The notes beneath the pieces are model-generated. The model saw only the letters and a list, made by a program, of their open reading frames with translations, did no database searches and was not told the DNA's origin. Shown piece after piece: positions 1,477 to 48,446 of a stretch of 64,000 nucleotides of DNA. The DNA is from an uncultured delta proteobacterium (lineage in GTDB: Bacteria > Myxococcota > UBA727 > VGSZ01), in assembly GCA_963775425.1 (NCBI GenBank), contig CAVZJB010000012.1, positions 32,001 to 96,000 on the forward strand, read 5' to 3'. Both the position numbers and the translations under genes were made by a program. Positions within the stretch are counted from its first letter, which is position 1. Each line of letters starts with the position of its first letter.

Positions 1477-1633
1477 GCGCCACGTATCGCGGCCGGGGCG
1501 CACTTCGGTGCACCTCCGCGCATCCCCGCACCGCCGTCGGTCGATCGACGGAGCCTCGCCCGGCGAGGCCGCATCGGACAGCGGCCCCGGCCCGGTCGAG
1601 CGGCTTCCCCCGAAGATCCGACTCGGCAAAGGT

Positions 1634-2458
1634 ATGTTCGTGTCGTACATCGGTCCTGTGCCGGATCAAGAGCAAGACGCGCAGCGCCAGGGGTGGAGCG
1701 GAGCGCGCAGCCCGCGGGGCCTGCCCGACATCGACGAGCTCGACCGGGTGTTGGAGCGCGCCCTGGCGGTCGCGCACGCCTATGTGAAGCAGCCGCGGCT
1801 CGAGCAGCTCATCGGACGGCTGTTGTCCGCGAGCGACGTCCTCGCCGCCCGCGGCATCACGGTGCCGCCGCGGGCGCTGCCGCTGCAGGTCCTCGAGGCG
1901 GTGGACGACCCGGAGGAGTGGTTCGCCCGCTACTACGACACGCTCCGCCTCGGCGTCCTCGAGGTCCTGCTGCACGAGGAGCTCGCCGAGTGGCAGCCGC
2001 TCGTGGACCAGATGCTCGCCGCCTTCCGCCGAAGCGAGCACGCGATGGTCTTGTGCAGCGGCCTCGCCATCCTCGAGAGCGTCATGGCCACCGCCGCCGG
2101 CGGCGCCCGCCCCGGGCTCGCCGCCGACACCAGCCCGCGGCGGGAGCGCGCGCTGCGCGGCCTGGCCGGACGCACGCTCGACCTGTCGGAGACGGACTGG
2201 GGCAGCACCCACCGCCACGTCCTCGGCTGGTCCCTCGACGCCGCCGTGACGCGCCTGCGCCCGAGCGGCGACGGCGGGCGCCACTGGACCATCGAGGGCC
2301 GCGACTCGCCGTCGGGTTGGACGCGCGAAGACGCGATGAAGGTGCTGAACGCCCTCGGCACCGCCGCCACGCTCTTGCCGCAGCGCCTGTCGAGAGACGC
2401 GCCCGCCCGCGTCTCCTTCGGGCCCACGCCCGCGCGCAGACAAGACCCGCTCCTGTGA
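1634..2458 (+). CDS. Hypothetical protein
   Basis: ATG at 1634 inside ORF 1466..2458; typical codon usage; no recognisable motif. Confidence 0.65.
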   Translation: MFVSYIGPVPDQEQDAQRQGWSGARSPRGLPDIDELDRVLERALAVAHAYVKQPRLEQLIGRLLSASDVLAARGITVPPRALPLQVLEAVDDPEEWFARYYDTLRLGVLEVLLHEELAEWQPLVDQMLAAFRRSEHAMVLCSGLAILESVMATAAGGARPGLAADTSPRRERALRGLAGRTLDLSETDWGSTHRHVLGWSLDAAVTRLRPSGDGGRHWTIEGRDSPSGWTREDAMKVLNALGTAATLLPQRLSRDAPARVSFGPTPARRQDPLL

Positions 2459-2552
2459 CGCGCGCTCCGTCCGGTCGCTGATCAAGCGCGGCCGCCGACG
2501 AACGATAGATCCCAGGTGTCGACGCCGTCGGAGCCGACGCGGAGGTGCCGCG

Positions 2553-3456
2553 ATGGATCCTCGAATCGATGCCGCGCTCCCGCCGCTGCCGCTCGCCGCC
2601 TGGCAAGACACCCGCGACACGCTGCACATGTGGATGCAAGTCGTCGGGAAGGTCGCGCTCGCCACCAGCGCGCTCACCAACCACTACTGGAACGCGGCGC
2701 TCGTCCTCACGCCGCGCGGCCTCGCGACACACCCGTTGTTCTTTCGCGACGTCGCCTTCGCCGTGACGTTCGACTTCGTCGCCGATCGCCTCGTCATCGA
2801 AGAGTCGAGCGGCGGCCGGCGCGAGCTCGCGCTCGAGCCGATGAGCGTCGCCGCCTTCTACGAGCGCCTGATGGGCGCCCTGAGAGACCTCGGCATCGAC
2901 GTCCACATCTGGACCACCCCGGTGGAGGTGGCGCGCGCGATCCCGTTCGAACGCGACGTCGAGCACTGCGCCTACGACGCCGCCCAGGCGCACGCGTTCT
3001 TCCGCGTCCTCGTCGGCGTCGAGCCCGTCTTCGAGCGGTTCCGCGCGGGCTTCGTCGGCAAGAGCAGCCCGCTGCACTTCTTCTGGGGCGCCTTCGACCT
3101 CGCGCTCACGCGGTTCTCGGGCCGCCGCACGCCCACGCTGGCCGACGACCCCGTCCAGCGCGAGGCGTACTCGCACGAGGTCATCAGCCACGGCTTCTGG
3201 CCCGGCGGCGGGGGCTACGAAGACGCCGCCTTCTACGCGTACGCCGCGCCGGAGCCGGCGGGCTTCGCGAGCGCTTCGGTGTCACCCCCCTCCGCCTTCT
3301 ACAGCGACGCCCTGCGCGAGATGGTCCTTCCCTACGAGGCGGTGCGCACGTCGCCGTCGCCGTCGTCGGCGCTCGGCGGATTCCTCGAGACCACCTACAC
3401 CGCGGCCGCCGACCTCGCGCGGTGGGACCGCGAGTCCCTCGAACGGAGGATTCTGA
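2553..3456 (+). CDS. DUF5996-like protein; runs in frame into the next gene, probably because of a 1-nt insertion at ~3451
   Basis: W..TRDTLHMWMQVVGKV...NHYWN, FVGKSSPLHFFWGAFDLALTRFSGR, EAYSHEVISHGFWPG motifs; deleting one T in GGATTCTGA gives ERRI-stop with TGA at 3454-3456. Confidence 0.75.
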
Positions 3457-42352: not shown

Positions 42353-44311
42353 ATGCAGCGGTACCAGATCTATGGGCGGTTGGCGGCGGGCGCGATGGGC
42401 GAGGTGCTCCTCGCCCGCGAGCGCAGCCGCGCCGGCCGGCTCGTCGCCGTCAAGCGTATGTTGGTGCGCAGCGACGAGGCGACCACGCAACTCCTCGAGG
42501 AGGCGCGCGTGTGCGCGACCGTGGCCCACCCCCACGTGGTCGGCGTGCTCGACGTCGGCGCCGACGAGGACGGGCCGTTCCTCGTGCTCGAGTACGTGCA
42601 CGGCGCCACGCTCGGCGCGTTGGCGGATCGGGCGGTGGCGGGCGGCGAGCTGTTGCCGGTGGAGGCGGTGGCGCGCGCGATCCACGACGTCGCCCTCGGC
42701 CTCGCGGCGGCGCACGACGCCGGCGTCGTGCACCGCGACGTGAAGCCCTCGAACATCCTCGTGTCCCTCGAGGGACAGGCGCGCGTCGCCGACTTCGGCA
42801 TCGCGTACGCCGCCAAGCGCCTGGTGGCGCCCACCGAGGCGGGCTTCGTCCGCGGCACGCTGCGCTACATGTCGCCCGAGCAGCTCGAGGCCAAGGACGT
42901 CGGCGCGGCGAGCGACCAGTTCGCGCTCGGCATCGTCCTGTGGGAGGCGCTCGCGGGCGCGCCGCTGTTCTACGCGCTCGGCGACCACGACGTCGACGTC
43001 GCGCGCAGGGTGCTCTCGGGCCGCGTGCCGCCGCTGCGCTCGCTGCGTGACGACGTGCCGCGCGCGCTCGAGGCCGCGGTGCTGCGGATGCTCGCGCGCC
43101 GCCCGGGGGATCGCTTCCCGAGCTGCGCGGCGGCCGCGGCGGCGCTGCGCGCGGCGTTCGACGCCGCCGCCTTCGAGCGCGCGCAGGAGGGCCTCGGCGG
43201 CGTGGCGCGGCTGCTGGTGGGGCGCGAGACCGATCGACGGCTGGCGCGGCTGACGGAGCGGACGGCGTTCGACGTCCCTTCCATCCACGCGCTGAACACG
43301 GCGGTGGAGGCGCCGACGCTGACGTCCGTTCCGCGGCCCGTGCGCGACGACGCACCGCGGACGCTCCCGCCGATCGACGAGTCGGTGACCTCCCGCGATC
43401 TGCCGACGGCGCCCACGCGCAAGGCGCGACGCAAGACGCCGCAGGCGAGCCCGCTGCCTGAGCTCGACGTCGACACGCACGCCCCGACCGCGGCCTTCGC
43501 CGTGCCTTCGTCCCCGCGGCGGGCGTCCCCGCGGCGGGCGTCGCCGCCGGCCAAAGACGACGGCGCGCCGGACGCCGGCGCCGTCGCGTCCGCCGACGAC
43601 ACCCCCACGGGCGCCTTCGCCGCGGCGACGGCGTCCACGGGAGTGCGCCCCGCGCGCGCCGCCCGCTGGCCCGTCGCGGCCGCGGTCGTCGCCGTGGTGG
43701 CGGCCGCGTGCGCGTCCTGCGTGGCGGTGCTCGCGACGACGTCGCGCTCGCCCGGCGCGGCCGTCGACGCGCCGGCGATCGTCGAGGTGCCGCGGATAGC
43801 CCCCTACGCCGATCCCGACGGGCGCGCCGCGCAAAGCCCGCCCATCGCCGATCACGCCGTCGCCGATCACGTCGTCGCCGACCACGGCGTCGCCGATCAC
43901 GCCGTCGCCGATCACGGGGCCGTCGACGACGGCAGCGCCGCGGCCCCCGCAGAGAGCGCGACGCCCGTATCGACAGGCCCGTCGCCGTCCTCGGCGCGAC
44001 ACGCGGCGCGCAGGGCAAGCGAGCTCCCCGAGCGCGCCGGGGCCCGGCGGGCGCGCGCGCGCGCCGTCCGCTTCGCGGGCGCCCGCGAGCCGCACCTGGT
44101 GCTCGCGGTCGACGCGTCGATGCGCGCGAGCGCGCAGCAGCGCCTGCGCGGATGCCGCCTCGCGCGCTCCGTCGTCGGCGTCGTCCGCGCGCGGCCCCAC
44201 GGCGTCGCGGTGACCAGCCAGCCGCGCAACGAGTGCGTGGAGCGCGCGCTCGCGCACGCCCTCCGCGGATTCAAGGGCGACGTCGAGCCCTACCAGATCG
44301 ATCGGGATTGA
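42353..44311 (+). CDS. Ser/Thr protein kinase with transmembrane segment
   Basis: GAMGEV, VAVK, HRDVKPSN, DFG, GTLRYMSPE; hydrophobic AVVAVVAAA segment. Confidence 0.9.
   Translation: MQRYQIYGRLAAGAMGEVLLARERSRAGRLVAVKRMLVRSDEATTQLLEEARVCATVAHPHVVGVLDVGADEDGPFLVLEYVHGATLGALADRAVAGGELLPVEAVARAIHDVALGLAAAHDAGVVHRDVKPSNILVSLEGQARVADFGIAYAAKRLVAPTEAGFVRGTLRYMSPEQLEAKDVGAASDQFALGIVLWEALAGAPLFYALGDHDVDVARRVLSGRVPPLRSLRDDVPRALEAAVLRMLARRPGDRFPSCAAAAAALRAAFDAAAFERAQEGLGGVARLLVGRETDRRLARLTERTAFDVPSIHALNTAVEAPTLTSVPRPVRDDAPRTLPPIDESVTSRDLPTAPTRKARRKTPQASPLPELDVDTHAPTAAFAVPSSPRRASPRRASPPAKDDGAPDAGAVASADDTPTGAFAAATASTGVRPARAARWPVAAAVVAVVAAACASCVAVLATTSRSPGAAVDAPAIVEVPRIAPYADPDGRAAQSPPIADHAVADHVVADHGVADHAVADHGAVDDGSAAAPAESATPVSTGPSPSSARHAARRASELPERAGARRARARAVRFAGAREPHLVLAVDASMRASAQQRLRGCRLARSVVGVVRARPHGVAVTSQPRNECVERALAHALRGFKGDVEPYQIDRD
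43847..43921 (+). repeat. 5 x 15-bp coding repeat (ADHxV)
   Basis: gccgatcacgccgtc units. Confidence 0.9.
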
Positions 44312-44455
44312 TTCCCCGGGCCGCGCCTTCGTGCCGCAGCCCCGTGTCGGCGGCGCGTCGTTCGTCCCCGGCGCGACGCGGCGGCTGAGCCACTCTGAGG
44401 CAATCGTTGCGACCGATACGATTTTCGTCAGGGCGTCCGTTAGCATCGTCGTCCG

Positions 44456-45274
44456 ATGCTCACCCTCGCGCTCCTCGCCTCGCTGGCGGCACCGGTGGTG
44501 CGCGTCGCCGTCGAAGGCGACGATCCGGTGGTGGGCTTCGTGCGCGCGCGGCTCTCCGCCGCCGGCCTCGCCCTCGTCGAGCCCAACCAGGCCGACGTGC
44601 GCGTGCGCCTGCGCGTCCTCGAGCACGGCGGCATCCACGTCGTCGTCGAAGACCGCCGCGGCGTCCTCGTGGACCGCGACCTCGACGGTGACGAGCCCCA
44701 GGTCGCCGCGTGGCTCGCCGTGCGCGACGCCGTCGAGCGCGTCGACGTCAGCGCGCCGCCGCCCTCCACGCAAAAGCCCGCCCCGCTCCCCGTCGCCGTC
44801 GACGTCCTCGCCGGCGCCGCCCCCGACGTCGGCCTGTCGTCGACGTCGTTCTTCCCCGTCGCGCTCGTCGTCAGCGCGCGCTGGCCCGTGGTCCCCCACC
44901 TCCGCATCGTCGCCGACGCCGGCTACGCCGTCGGCTTTTCGTCGGGCGTCGTGCTCCACAGCCTCCCCGTCCGCTTCGGCGCCGAGGCCACCGGCGGCGA
45001 CGACGTCGAGTGGTCCGCCGGCGCGCGCGTCTCCACCACGCCGAGCCTGGCGGTCTCCGGCTCGCGCGCGGGTGGCGGCGTCGGCGCCGCCGTCGCCGCG
45101 TACGGCCGCGTCGCGTTCCCGCTCGGGCGCGTGCTCGGCCTCGACGCCGCCGCCGTCGTCGAGGCCGGCCTCGAGTCCAAGCTCGTCCGCGAGGTCGTCG
45201 TCACCGACGCCGGCACGCGCCAGGAGCCCCTGTTCGCCGCGCCCGTCTCCGTCGGCGTGGAGGTGCGCCTGTGA
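44456..45274 (+). CDS. Secreted hypothetical protein with beta-barrel-like C-terminus, first gene of the ECF sigma operon
   Basis: Signal-like MLTLALLASLAA; amphipathic strands ending VSVGVEVRL; TAGCAT 9 nt upstream. Confidence 0.7.
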   Translation: MLTLALLASLAAPVVRVAVEGDDPVVGFVRARLSAAGLALVEPNQADVRVRLRVLEHGGIHVVVEDRRGVLVDRDLDGDEPQVAAWLAVRDAVERVDVSAPPPSTQKPAPLPVAVDVLAGAAPDVGLSSTSFFPVALVVSARWPVVPHLRIVADAGYAVGFSSGVVLHSLPVRFGAEATGGDDVEWSAGARVSTTPSLAVSGSRAGGGVGAAVAAYGRVAFPLGRVLGLDAAAVVEAGLESKLVREVVVTDAGTRQEPLFAAPVSVGVEVRL

Positions 45275-45283
45275 GACGTCCTG

Positions 45284-45289
45284 TGTCAA
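45284..45289 (-). promoter_or_regulatory. Outward-facing -35 box (TTGACA) at the IS110 right end
   Basis: Perfect TTGACA; in the circle junction it lies 17 nt before CAACCT from the left end. Confidence 0.6.
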
Positions 45290-45312
45290 CCACCGCGCTG
45301 CGTCACGCCATC

Positions 45313-46518
45313 TCAGGCGGCGAGCGCGGCGGCGCGGCCGTGAAGGGCCGGGTCGTACGGGACGCGGGCTTTCCAGCACGCGTACAGCACCCGGAGCCAC
45401 GCACGAGCGAGGATGCGGGTCGCATGCGGGTGGTCGTGGCCGCGAGCGCGGGCAGCGTCGTAGAGGGCGGCGGCCCATGGCGAGCTGTGTCGCGAGTTGT
45501 CGGCCCAGAGGGTCACGGCGGAGCGCAGGTGCTTGTTGCACGCCCACCGGAACGCGACGCCGACGTGCTTGCCGGACGCGAACGTTACGGGGCACACGCC
45601 AGCCTCGGCCTCGAGGTGCTCGTGGCTGTCGAAGCGCGCGCGCTCGTCGCCGAGCTCGCTGAGAATCTGCGCGGCGTTGATGCGTCCGCTGCGCGGAAAC
45701 GACATCACGATGTGCCCGTCGGGGTGCGCCTCGACGGCGTGTTCGACGGCGGCGTTGAGCTTCTTGAGACGTGCGACGACGATGTCGAGGACCGCGACGA
45801 GGTGCTGCACGGCTTCCCCCTTCGCCTCGGCCTCCATCTCGCCGCACTTGCCGCTGGGCGCACCTCGCAAGCGGCCCAGGAGCTCGGCGACGTCCCTGCG
45901 ACCGGAGTAGTGGTTGCGCGCCAGGAACGCTTCGAGCCGCTTCTCGCCGACGCGCTCGGCGTGCTGCGGTGTCGGGTACCTCCCGAGGAACGCCAGCGCG
46001 ATGGGCGAGTCGATGTCGCGGAAGATGCACGCGGCGCCGGCCCAGAAGCTCTCAACGAGCGCGCGCAGCTGGTTCGCCAGTGCAACCCGCTCGGCAACGA
46101 GGTCGCCGCGTGCGCGAACGAGGGCACGCAGCGCCTTCGTCTCGTCTCCGAGCGGCGTGAGCGTCTTGAAGCGATGCCCATCGGTGCGCAGCAAGTCTGC
46201 CAGCAGGTAGCTGTCGCCGGGGTCGCTCTTGGCGCCAACGCTCGAGTAGCGCGGACGCGTCGCTTTCACGACGTTCGGGTGAATCGGCACGACGTGGAAT
46301 CCCGCATCGACCAGCGTGTCGACGACGAGCCCCGTCGGCCGCTCGATGGCGATGCGCAGCGGCGCTTCCTCAGTGAACCTACGGAGCTTCGCCACAGCGC
46401 CGGTGAGACCCTCCTCGGTGTGCTTGACGACGAGGCGGAGCACGACGCTGCCCTTGTCGTCGATGACGCAGACGGCGTGTTCGTTCGCCGCCCAATCCAA
46501 ACCTGCAAAGTACGACAC
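45313..46518 (-). CDS. IS110-family DEDD recombinase/transposase
   Basis: AGGAGG then GTG 46518; AGLDWA, IAIE, KSDPGD, SFPRSG, AGVCPVTFASGK, CNKHLR. Confidence 0.95.
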   Translation of the reverse strand: MSYFAGLDWAANEHAVCVIDDKGSVVLRLVVKHTEEGLTGAVAKLRRFTEEAPLRIAIERPTGLVVDTLVDAGFHVVPIHPNVVKATRPRYSSVGAKSDPGDSYLLADLLRTDGHRFKTLTPLGDETKALRALVRARGDLVAERVALANQLRALVESFWAGAACIFRDIDSPIALAFLGRYPTPQHAERVGEKRLEAFLARNHYSGRRDVAELLGRLRGAPSGKCGEMEAEAKGEAVQHLVAVLDIVVARLKKLNAAVEHAVEAHPDGHIVMSFPRSGRINAAQILSELGDERARFDSHEHLEAEAGVCPVTFASGKHVGVAFRWACNKHLRSAVTLWADNSRHSSPWAAALYDAARARGHDHPHATRILARAWLRVLYACWKARVPYDPALHGRAAALAA

Positions 46519-46540
46519 GACGGACCTCCTTGTTGCGGTA

Positions 46541-46760
46541 CCGTCCCCCGGGCTGGGAGCCTTGATCGGTTGCTCATTGACAGGCGCTCCGTCGTCGTCA
46601 GCAAACATCGTCGGGCGCAACGTCCTGTAGCCGCTTCAAGGCTCCCGGCTTCGTCGAGGGGGCGGGTCTCACAGGGGCCGTTCACCGGCAAGCGAGCGCG
46701 GCCCTCCCCGACGAAGCCCGGGAGACGGCGCCGGGAAGATCGCTCAACCCGTCACCGCGG
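46541..46760 (-). ncRNA. Putative IS110 bridge RNA (target- and donor-binding loops)
   Basis: Stems 46541-53/46716-28, 46555-65/46636-46, ~46649-56/46709-16; loops carry matches to donor junction and target site; 5' end approximate. Confidence 0.8.
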
Positions 46761-46775
46761 CGTAGAGGTTGTCCA

Positions 46776-47303
46776 ATGAGCGACGACGTCGACGCCGTCG
46801 TGCGCGCCCACGGCCCCGACGTCTGGCGGCTGCTCAAGCGCATCTTCGGCCAGCACGCCGACGTCGACGACACCTTCCAGCAGGTGATGCTCGAGGTCGT
46901 GCGCGCGCTGCCGTCCTTCCGCGGCGACAGCGAGTTGTCGACGTGGATCCACCGCATCACGCTCAACGTGGCCTACCAGCGCATGCGGCGCGGCTACCGG
47001 GGTGTCGAGGTCGACCTCGACGAGGCCGGCGTCGCCGTGGCCGACGTCGACGTCGAGGGGCAGGTGGCCGACGCCCAGACCGCGCGCCGCCTCTACGAGA
47101 GCCTCGAGGCGCTGCCGCCCAAGAAGCGCATCGCCGTGGTGCTCCACGACGTCGAGGGCCTCACGCTCAAGGAGATCGGCGAGCGCCTGGGCATCCCGTT
47201 GCAGACCGTGGCGTCGCAGCTCCACTCCGGGCGGGCGATGCTCGCCGAGGCGCTGTTCGTCCAGGGCGAAAACCGCGCGCGCGCGAAGGGGGGCGAGCGA
47301 TGA
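46776..47303 (+). CDS. ECF sigma-70 factor
   Basis: DVDDTFQQVML...LPSFRGDSELSTWIHRITLN; LPPKKRIAVVLHDVEGLTLKEIGERLGIPLQTV. Confidence 0.93.
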   Translation: MSDDVDAVVRAHGPDVWRLLKRIFGQHADVDDTFQQVMLEVVRALPSFRGDSELSTWIHRITLNVAYQRMRRGYRGVEVDLDEAGVAVADVDVEGQVADAQTARRLYESLEALPPKKRIAVVLHDVEGLTLKEIGERLGIPLQTVASQLHSGRAMLAEALFVQGENRARAKGGER

Positions 47304-48446
47304 CGCGCTCCTGCGCCGACGTGCGCGCGCTGCTCGGGGGCTACCTGCACGGCGACGTCGCCCCGCTCGAGCGCACCCTCGTGGAGGCGCACCTCGCCCG
47401 CTGCGCGTCGTGCGCGTCGGTGAAGGACGCGCTCGCGGAGGGGCTCCGCGCCGCGCGCATTGGAGCCCGCGATCGACGTCGAGGGCCTCGTCGCGCTGGT
47501 CAGGGCCGCGCCGTCGTCGACGCCGCCGCTCGGCGTCCCCCTCGACGACTCCCTCGGCGTCTCTCTCGACGTCTCCCTCGACGACGTGCCTGGGCGGTCC
47601 CCGCGCCTCCGGCGCGCGCGCCCGTCGCGTCGCTGGGCGTTCGCCGCGGCGCTGGCGTCGGCGTCGGCGCTCGCCGCGTCCTTCGTTGTCGTCGCGCCGC
47701 GCATGCACGCCACGCCGCCCGTGAGCGCCGCGGCGCCGCCCGCGCTGTCGTCGCCCGCGCTGTCGTCGCCCGCGCCGTCGTCGGCCGCGCCGTCGTCGGC
47801 CGCGCCGTCGTCGGCCGCGCCGTCGTCGGCCGCGCCGTCGTCGCCCGCGCCGGAGAGGGCGGCGCTCCCCGCGCCGCACGACGCGCTCGCGCGCCGCGAC
47901 GTCGGCCCGCGCGCGCCGCGCACGCCGTCGCACCACGCCCACCGCGCGCCGCGCGCGCGCCCGCGCGCCACGCCCCCCGACGACGATGGTGGCGCGCGCC
48001 TCGCGCTCGCGACGCCGCCCGCGCCGGCGCCGCCGGAGGCCGCCCTGCGGGAGGCCGGGCTCGACGAGCTGCTGCCGTTGCTCGACGAGGCGGCCCGTCT
48101 CGGGCGCAACGGCGACGGCGTCGAGGCGCTCGCCCGCTATCACGCGCTGGAGTCCGACCCGCGCTTCGCCCGCCACGTCGACCTCATCGCCTACGAGCGC
48201 GCGCGCCTGCAGGGGCTCGTGCTCGGTGACGTCGACATCGCCCGCGCCGAGCTCGCGCGCCTCGCCGCCGAGGGCGCCGGCCACGTCGCCGACGAGGCCG
48301 CGCTCACGCGCTGCGAGGTGGAGCGCACGCGCGCCCCGTGCGCGGCGCTCACCTGCCTCGACGACGTCGCGCACAGCGGCCGCGGCGCCGCGAGCGACGC
48401 CGCCCACCTGCGCGCCCGTTGGGCCGCGTCTTGCCCCGGACGGTGA
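47300..48446 (+). CDS. zf-HC2 anti-sigma-like membrane protein; frameshift at ~47460
   Basis: ATGA overlap with sigma; C...LLGGYLHG...EAHLARCASC; TM segment and helical C-terminus in the +1 frame. Confidence 0.75.
47739..47843 (+). repeat. 7 x 15-bp coding repeat (PALSS/AAPSS)
   Basis: (c/g)ccgcgc(t/c)gtcgtcg units. Confidence 0.9.

Follow-up and report, generated by a model that had tools for sequence, protein, structure and literature searches.

The stretch of DNA examined here (the window) is 64,000 nucleotides long and comes from an uncultured delta proteobacterium (GTDB lineage Bacteria; Myxococcota; UBA727; VGSZ01; GenBank assembly GCA_963775425.1, contig CAVZJB010000012.1, positions 32,001 to 96,000 of the forward strand). 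An insertion sequence of the IS110 family was located in it at the junction between an upstream open reading frame (ORF) and a gene for an extracytoplasmic function (ECF) sigma factor, which is followed by the gene for an anti-sigma factor. The features of this locus, in window coordinates, are as follows.

44456..45274, + strand: upstream host ORF of 272 codons; its TGA stop (45272-45274) survives the insertion
45259..45273, + strand: host GGAGG-N7-GTG, the former translation start of the sigma gene, which now heads an element-long ORF
45271..46779, + strand: this element-long ORF (the through-frame), 502 codons, from the host GTG to a TGA (46777-46779) overlapping the rebuilt ATG
45274..46780, - strand: IS110-family element, bounded by two copies of the core dinucleotide (CT as the element reads, AG on the + strand); 1,505 bp core to core
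45276..45312, - strand: short right end, 37 nt, with the left donor ACAGGACGT and an outward-facing TTGACA (45284-45289)
45313..46518, - strand: transposase/recombinase of 401 aa, recognized by Pfam and NCBIfam
46545..46741, - strand: bridge RNA region, part of the left end (262 nt); target loop, then donor loop
46764..46778, + strand: rebuilt sigma start, an element-borne AGAGG-N7-ATG whose complement overlaps a -10-like CAACCT (46766-46771)
46776..47303, + strand: ECF sigma factor gene, 175 codons; Pfam Sigma70_r2 and Sigma70_r4_2
47300..48446, + strand: anti-sigma gene with an ATGA overlap with the sigma stop; N-terminal zf-HC2 (Pfam, 4.5e-11)

At the left junction GGAGG (45259-45263) is followed after 7 nt by GTG (45271-45273), which overlaps the TGA (45272-45274) of the upstream ORF, and element sequence (ACGTCC...) begins past 45275, from 45276. 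At the right junction AGAGG (46764-46768) stands 7 nt before ATG (46776-46778), which is followed by AGCGACGAC... and opens the sigma ORF. At insertion the sigma gene exchanged GTG for ATG and GGAGG for AGAGG, with a spacing of 7 nt in both. TGAG is present at both junctions (45272-45275 and 46777-46780), so that the exact crossover within these 4 nt is unreadable from the sequence; to say that the last element base makes the ATG, or to follow the bridge-recombinase convention in which the core is AG and the whole ATG comes from the element, is to describe the same DNA.

Pfam matched the transposase to DEDD_Tnp_IS110 (PF01548, 1.5e-32, residues 5-158) and Transposase_20 (PF02371, 2.3e-14, residues 269-353), and NCBIfam to NF033542, "IS110 family RNA-guided transposase" (183.1 bits, cut-off 140). 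The N-terminal DEDD (RuvC-like) and C-terminal Tnp domains are the architecture of the IS110 family. A phmmer comparison with IS621 (E 3.8e-7) was confined to the C-terminal domain, where ...FASGK... of the query aligned with ...YESGS... of IS621. No terminal inverted repeats were found (3 of 30 terminal positions match when inverted), and the element has non-coding ends of unequal length, 262 nt on the left versus 37 nt on the right. Its domains, the family model, the end architecture and the bridge RNA place the element in the IS110 subgroup of the IS110 family.

The sigma factor contains Sigma70 regions 2 and 4 only and its gene precedes one for a zf-HC2 anti-sigma protein, as in ECF sigma/anti-sigma pairs. 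The ECF model TIGR02937 (NCBIfam) aligns residue 5 with profile position 3, and homologues from metagenomes align from residues 2-4; based on these alignments the start is the ATG at 46776 and not a GTG eight codons further on. The initial annotation of this DNA, which had described an IS110 element lying antisense to the host genes and inserted exactly in a GTGA overlap, with the upstream stop kept and a start codon and Shine-Dalgarno (SD)-like block supplied at the same 7-nt spacing, was correct in every coordinate when the junctions were read directly, and the family matches and the minus-strand transposase bear out its assignment. The bridge RNA as the specifier of the site was missing from it.

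Three contigs of the genome (18 contigs, 8.26 Mb, 72% G+C) carry the element, in four full copies with 100% identity to one another and a partial copy of 933 bp. The full copies share the flanks ...(G/C)CTGTGAG, element, (ATG)AGCG, with ...CCAATGAGCG... as the right flank, and all four have TGAG (core AG plus 2 nt) at both junctions. Four identical copies with shared flanks mark the stretch as an insertion and not a product of chance, and the copies appear to have been active recently. In each of the four the element is preceded by the CTG-TGA stop of a co-directional ORF, to which it is always antisense. The ORFs have a coding-type pattern of G+C at the three codon positions (GC1>GC2<GC3) and the tails ...VEVRL*, ...DEGGL*, ...VVPPRL* and ...GVPGL*; the first is that of the upstream ORF at 44456-45274, with GC1/2/3 of 0.81/0.55/0.98. 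Random interruption of genes by the other copies, which the initial annotation had named as an outcome that would refute it, was therefore not what was found. A long ORF in frame with the rebuilt ATG exists at the window copy only; at copies B, C and D this frame has 27, 26 and 18 codons. The TGA of the 27-codon ORF of copy B (L002, C12:321147-322649) overlaps the ATG of a small membrane protein gene (MTSLVVIVGG...), and the chain of overlaps may also be present there. The partial copy (L005, C18:86450-87382) consists of the left end and about 288 transposase codons and lies between rsmG-like and parA-like genes; its flank reads TGAG-CAGCC, and near-identical direct repeats of about 60 nt (...GTGACCGGCGCCCGCGGACCTCGAGCGCCC...) occur on both sides.

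The left end of the window copy folds better than its shuffles (z = -6.1 over 262 nt). The IS110 left-end RNA described in the excerpts of Durrant et al. (2024, PMC11208160) has a target-binding internal loop followed by a donor-binding one; in each loop the 5' side pairs with the bottom strand over 8-9 nt and the 3' side with the top strand over 4-7 nt, the core being part of each pairing. Four guides were identified in the bridge RNA region, all on the - strand.

46691-46699: left target guide (LTG), GCGCUCG-CU, matching the target left of the core
46668-46675: right target guide (RTG), CCUG-UGAG, the complement of CT-CA-CAGG
46620-46628: left donor guide (LDG), ACAGGACGU, identical to the right end
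46573-46579: right donor guide (RDG), CAAUGAG, the complement of CT-CATTG at the left end

They fit the loop order and the strand rule of the published excerpts, core included. On the strand of the host genes the target is 5'-CTG TG-AG CGAGCGC-3'; the 3' guide CCUG-UGAG reads the last codon, the purine and TGAG, and the 5' guide GCGCUCG-CU reads the bases that follow. The donor end reads ...AGAGGTTGTCCA-ATG-AG, so that recombination keeps the upstream TGA and gives the sigma gene an ATG and AGAGG. An alternative LTG register, CCGCG-CU, was dropped, as relatives place the core-pairing CU 4 nt further 3'. Among the families of Rfam 15 no bridge RNA matched the left end, and a snoRNA match was at the level of chance.

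Relatives of the transposase (45-67% identity) were collected from genome contigs, from whole-genome searches in three groups and from three plasmid records. They came from metagenome-assembled genomes of Methylomirabilota/'Rokubacteria', from Roseomonas, Gemmatimonadales and Actinomycetota, and from two further genomes of the window's own phylum. Both ends could be found by regular expression in 21 of 31 loci, and the other 10 were dropped from all counts. In an alignment of 18 left ends a conserved scaffold is interspersed with variable guide blocks, and the consensus fold has two modules of stem, internal loop and hairpin, with compensatory changes in 20 of 38 pairs. Over 19 distinct guide-site pairs the RTG matched the right flank at 52 of 76 places (4 variable positions), a value reached by none of 20,000 shuffles; the LTG matched the left flank at 67 of 133 (7 positions), reached by 1 of 20,000, and most strongly beside the core (19/19 at -1, 14/19 at -2). 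The donor guides LDG and RDG follow each element's own ends (CATTG/CAAUG, CACTG/CAGUG, CACTA/UAGUG, and a GT core in L063). Judged from these sequence comparisons, RNA-guided choice of the site is the best-supported part of the account given here. A purine and then UGAG close every one of the 14 distinct RTGs, with UGAC in place of UGAG in L063 and UAAC in L064, and the RDGs are built alike; the guide RNA itself thus spells R-UGA-G.

The genes on the two sides of the relatives were then compared. At 14 of the 21 insertions the ORF in frame with the rebuilt start codon (ATG or GTG) has a Pfam match, mostly beginning within about 25 residues; two of these are weak (Glyco_transf_4 at L058, 27.9 bits against a curated cut-off of 28.5, and DinB_2 at L098, from residue 69). 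The ORF ending at the TGA has a match in 12 (11 without a weak TPR match), and both sides have matches in 10. The flanking pairs are classical operon neighbours, among them VirB8|VirB9, LivG|LivF, XseB|IspA, OppD|OppF, KdsA|KdsB and solute-binding protein|permease, and at L093 the downstream gene begins with the DnaX N-terminus. The proposed rule that copies occupy RTGA-coupled junctions is accordingly strong among the relatives and weak within the source genome, for which the counts are given below. The clade is spread over several phyla, with insertions mostly on the 4-nt stop/start overlaps of operon gene pairs. L060 and L086, which are distinct elements of two genomes and carry unlike target guides, both lie at the end of a LivG-type ABC ATPase gene, and elements in different hosts may use conserved operon junctions as common landing sites.

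In 17 of 18 element ends compared by eye (the exception is L059), a spacing of 7 nt separates the rebuilt start codon from a purine-rich block upstream of it, which reads GAGG, GGGAGGG or AGGAGG. Part of the complement of this block is a conserved left-end hexamer (CAACCT, TACCCT or CACCCT), which stands 17-18 nt past the right-end TTGACA when the ends are joined. The excerpts of Durrant et al. (2024, PMC11208160) describe a promoter at the junction of the IS110 circle with its -35 in the right end and its -10 in the left end, and by analogy the TTGACA at 45284-45289 is likely the -35 of such a promoter. The purine block may serve the junction promoter, the ribosome, or both.

On the strand of the host genes the through-frame runs codon for codon antisense to the transposase; the other two frames of that strand contain 8 and 12 stops in the window element. 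Thirteen of the 21 relatives have a length of 2 mod 3 and a frame free of stops from the host start codon to a terminal TGA that overlaps the rebuilt one (495-531 codons; two of the 13 end in TAG-TGA). In 4 of the 21 the frame stops 3-13 codons early (lengths 1591, at three loci, and 1579). The plasmid relatives L101 (1478 bp) and L102 (from the Mycobacterium avium complex, 1517 bp) are likewise 2 mod 3 with an open frame, of 506 codons in L102. Nine distinct total lengths (1478, 1484, 1490, 1505, 1517, 1520, 1583, 1589 and 1592) are all 2 mod 3, and the left-end lengths (256, 259, 262, 271, 355 and 358) are all 1 mod 3, with single alignment gaps of 1, 2, 4 or 7 nt. Across the left end the through-frame had no stop in 5 of the 5 elements first tested, for which shuffling gave a per-element chance of 0.11-0.26, and it is also free of stops in most of the wider set. 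The length classes and the stop-free left ends point to selection on phase. A stop expectation based on the flanks was unreliable, the flanking ORFs being over-extended. The length of the right end mod 3 was dropped as independent evidence, since any in-frame move of the transposase stop changes this length by a multiple of 3 in any case. Avoidance of TTA, CTA and TCA in the transposase was tried as a sign of a selected antisense frame and was ruled out by controls, as described below.

The background of available sites was estimated in the source genome only, with crude gene calls (based on G+C at the third codon position, GC3) covering 80% of it. RTGAGC occurs 15,664 times. In 306 cases it forms a stop and start overlap, in 307 a stop only, and 2,901 lie outside the crude gene calls, an upper bound for intergenic sites. 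If all non-disruptive sites were equally good, overlaps would be expected as a minority; among the relatives they are the majority. Forty-four unoccupied CTGTGAGCG sites were counted, so that the availability of targets does not limit copy number. By crude criteria 11 of the 44 were at ORF stops, two of these with an in-frame downstream ORF; the figure of 11 is an undercount, as this first stop-codon classifier missed copy C (dcd-like tail), and it was replaced by the later classification. Some unoccupied sites extend the match to the guide, for example CCTGTGAGCGCGG on C16 and C17.

From the flanks shared by the four copies and from the guide RNA the empty site was tentatively reconstructed as GGAGGTGCGCCTGTGAGCGAC (...CCTGTGAGCGAC...), with ...GCGCCTGTGAGCGACGAC... 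as the expected allele. The check for an empty allele came out negative at the window locus: none was found in the genomes of relatives, in metagenome contigs or in one DNA read run. The protein of the upstream ORF was absent from 40 relatives, being matched in the source genome only (1/41), and had no relative among 599 pattern matches in metagenome contigs. Metagenomic relatives of the sigma factor were found at 44 loci with at most 38% identity, so that none is an ortholog. The DNA run (0.06 share of words) yielded eight short pieces, one of which (172 nt) was identical to part of the transposase; the organism itself was absent from this run. A checkable case was provided by the XseB|IspA insertion, L061, through orthologous junctions in genomes of the same family. 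Ten of 12 loci were read, the occupied locus and L108, from an unpublished genome, being left out. The unoccupied xseB|ispA junction is a GTGA overlap in 9 of the 10, and the sequence of one junction, GAGGCGTGAGCG, agrees over its 12 nt with the flanks of the L061 insertion. In this case the rule used for reconstruction holds.

Based on these observations we propose, with a probability of about 0.6, that the element was inserted under RNA guidance into the GTGA overlap, rebuilt the start of the sigma gene, and relays ribosomes through its element-long frame with the coupling kept. The sequence shows the guided insertion at the core AG inside the GTGA overlap, the kept stop, the start and SD-like block supplied anew, and the fusion of the host SD and GTG to the 502-codon frame; the relay is the proposed part. 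Transcription begun at the upstream promoter would continue through the element. Ribosomes that finish the upstream gene would reinitiate at the host GTG, follow the through-frame to its end on the rebuilt ATG, and from there begin anew on the sigma gene. The insertion would be only weakly polar, with the sigma/anti-sigma pair staying translationally linked to the upstream gene. The initial annotation had inferred a non-disruptive strategy that uncouples and may re-regulate the pair. Its first half has gained strong comparative support from the coupled junctions of the relatives. Its second half has gained none, and the anatomy of the locus, an element-long ORF with start and stop overlaps at both ends, suggests the reverse, that coupling was kept.

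Several points weigh against this proposal, and most of them belong to a serious rival, which we consider possible if rather unlikely: that the rebuilt start and the long frame are by-products. CTCAY next to the core would be needed by the recombinase or the bridge RNA in donor and target, the purine block would be the complement of a -10, the open frame would follow from 69-72% G+C, and the copies would lie at gene ends only because those within genes had been lost. The 1.5-kb antisense insertion would then be polar and would cut the sigma/anti-sigma pair off from the upstream promoter. The R-UGAG of the donor and target guides could indeed be a requirement of the recombinase and not a translational one. 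The SD-like block shares positions with the complement of what is probably the -10 of the junction promoter (TTGACA, 17-18 nt, CAACCT/TACCCT across the joined ends, as in the IS110 circles of the PMC11208160 excerpts), which allows another cause for its conservation. Five of five control IS110-family transposases (35-61% identity) were equally without TTA, CTA and TCA codons, so that openness of the frame opposite the transposase coding sequence comes free with high G+C. In the source genome 306 of 613 gene ends with RTGAGC already carry an overlapping start; given a site at a stop codon, the excess of overlaps is therefore modest. One of the four genomic copies lies on an overlapping start (2/4 when the linker ORF of copy B is counted), the other three being at stops without one. 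Four of the 21 through-frames are broken, three of them in elements with damaged transposase genes, and L064 does not fit at all. In L102 the frame is kept though the annotated neighbours run in the direction of the transposase. The flanking gene calls are crude (GC3 rules) wherever Pfam is silent, and the relatives are kin, which makes the quoted probabilities non-independent. Against the by-product explanation stand the six left-end lengths and nine total lengths that each fall in one class mod 3 although indels of sizes other than multiples of three occur, the stop-free frame of the left end, and a purine block that often reaches past the -10 complement to GGGAGGG or AGGAGG. In addition, intergenic RTGAGC sites outnumber overlaps several-fold in the genome, yet overlaps dominate among the relatives.

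It is improbable that the element-long ORF instead encodes a functional protein, as has been proposed for the hed ORF of IS900, with landing at a host SD and start serving its expression and the sparing of the downstream gene being secondary. The geometry, a complementary-strand span of the whole element with neither a ribosome binding site (RBS) nor a start of its own, is that of hed as described in the excerpts of PMC8141618, and relatives with as little as 48-54% transposase identity still have the frame. The predicted 502-residue product matched no Pfam family, however, and a frame that is codon for codon antisense to the transposase and crosses the structured bridge RNA region has little room for constraints of its own. 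No function of hed is reported in those excerpts, and the exact TGA/start overlap at the far end is better explained by a relay of ribosomes. There is hardly any likelihood that the sigma factor truly starts at the in-frame GTG of codon 9 (46800-46802), which would make the site a plain stop-proximal intergenic one with nothing rebuilt. Pfam Sigma70_r2 does begin at residue 9; the profile and homologue alignments from residues 2-5, the host GGAGG 7 nt before the overlapped GTG and the many parallel cases in relatives argue against it.

The element can be set beside known systems. IS621 and the IS110-subgroup bridge recombinases (Durrant et al. 2024, PMC11208160; Hiraizumi et al. 2024, PMC11208158), as far as the excerpts describe them, share with it the DEDD/Tnp recombinase, the CT core, the long left end, the RNA with a target loop and then a donor loop, in which the 5' sides match the top strand and the 3' sides are complementary to it, and a promoter spanning the circle junction, with its -35 in the right end and its -10 in the left. 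The present element is distant in sequence, its donor and target share CTCAY and not just CT, its natural targets are stop/start overlaps of genes and not repetitive extragenic palindromic (REP) elements, and it has a whole-length frame on the opposite strand. The REP-targeting IS110 elements ISPpu9 and ISPpu10 resemble it, in the literature excerpts considered, in sequence-specific, non-disruptive homing to a recurring short sequence; their targets are extragenic repeats, whereas here the target is an overlap of coding signals that varies in sequence from site to site.

The precedent of IS900 of Mycobacterium avium subsp. paratuberculosis, which the initial annotation had invoked, is real. 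In the excerpts of PMC8141618 its target is CATGNNNNNNTCTCCTT (CATGN6TCTCCTT), with insertion between the SD and the ATG, and the hed ORF lies on the complementary strand; Doran et al. (1997) is represented by its title and by citing text. Both elements belong to the IS110 family, are placed in a fixed orientation at translation initiation signals, rarely disrupt genes, and have a whole-element ORF opposite the transposase that brings neither an RBS nor a start codon, a description that the 502-codon frame of the window fits. The IS900 motif given in the excerpts is not shared: here the target is CTGTG-AG-CG..., and the crossover is inside RTGA-G, past the start codon. The element described here also re-supplies the start codon and the SD-like block, and its ORF ends in a TGA overlapping that start. 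The comparison with IS900 was made by description; the nearest transposases from M. avium-complex plasmids are about 51% identical. One of these, L102 (plasmid pS2b, locus 1530-3048; 51% identity), has a GT core and lies between ...ACGTGAGG and CATG of its neighbours, a placement closer to the SD/ATG geometry of the IS900 type. A copy on Mesorhizobium pMLa (L100) was decayed, without recognizable ends, and was set aside.

We tentatively extend the proposal to the clade as a whole: bridge-RNA IS110 elements of several phyla may have evolved as translationally transparent, non-polar inserts of operon junctions, with guides fixed to R-UGA-G, an end that brings back SD and start codon, and a frame held in phase across the bridge RNA region that hands ribosomes on, and hed of IS900 may be the same device. 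The literature searched contained no account of IS110 elements placed at stop/start overlaps or of a coupled-translation relay, though the supplementary tables of Durrant et al. (2024) and of PMC8141618 may list such targets; the sole match for IS110 together with translational coupling concerns IS66. The interest lies mainly in the clade-wide pattern that ties together bridge-RNA targeting, the puzzle of hed and translational coupling.

Bridge recombinases are under development as programmable genome-writing tools, and their natural choice of sites is little understood. If the proposal is true, the safe landing site of this clade is the stop/start overlap, where the start is restored and translation continues across the insert. 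The old hed observation in IS900 would thereby gain a function, a natural design would be at hand for placing cargo in operons without polarity, and translational coupling would have an example from mobile elements. At the window locus the ECF sigma/anti-sigma pair would probably not be knocked out by the insertion. For annotation it would mean that some genes owe their start codon and SD sequence to an element, and one RefSeq-annotated example was seen. On plasmid 3 of Variovorax sp. PBL-E5 (L101, 1468-1552) the annotated start of an alpha/beta hydrolase is an ATG in the outer copy of a duplicated remnant of the element end, with AGGAGG/GGAGG 7 nt upstream; this outer copy looks like a leftover element end now serving as the start signals of the gene. 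The 17-nt motif that terminates the left end (CTCATAAGGCAACCTCC) occurs there twice, 65 nt apart, and a 22-codon ORF with ATGA overlaps at both ends joins the two copies.

Some further observations were made at the window locus. The product of the upstream ORF at 44456-45274 had no family match in searches of Pfam and NCBIfam. A scan of positions 44200-47400 with the sigma-70 consensus, which is too strict for this G+C, gave no promoter-like sites, and inside the element no terminator-like sites were found on the + strand. A gene for a Ser/Thr protein kinase (42353-44311; Pkinase, 9.8e-40) lies directly upstream of the group formed by the ORF and the sigma and anti-sigma genes. In the anti-sigma gene (47300-48446) the coding frame switches near 47424-47460, based on a GC3 frame plot: GC3 is 1.0 in the zf-HC2 frame as far as about 47420; beyond it a different frame, which contains the transmembrane segment, has 0.93-1.0. 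A frameshift mutation may account for the switch, or else an assembly error or a split gene. Between 47730 and 47850, tandem units of 15 nt (GCCGCGCCGTCGTCG and variants) encode AAPSS/PALSS repeats in what is predicted to be the outer part of the anti-sigma protein.

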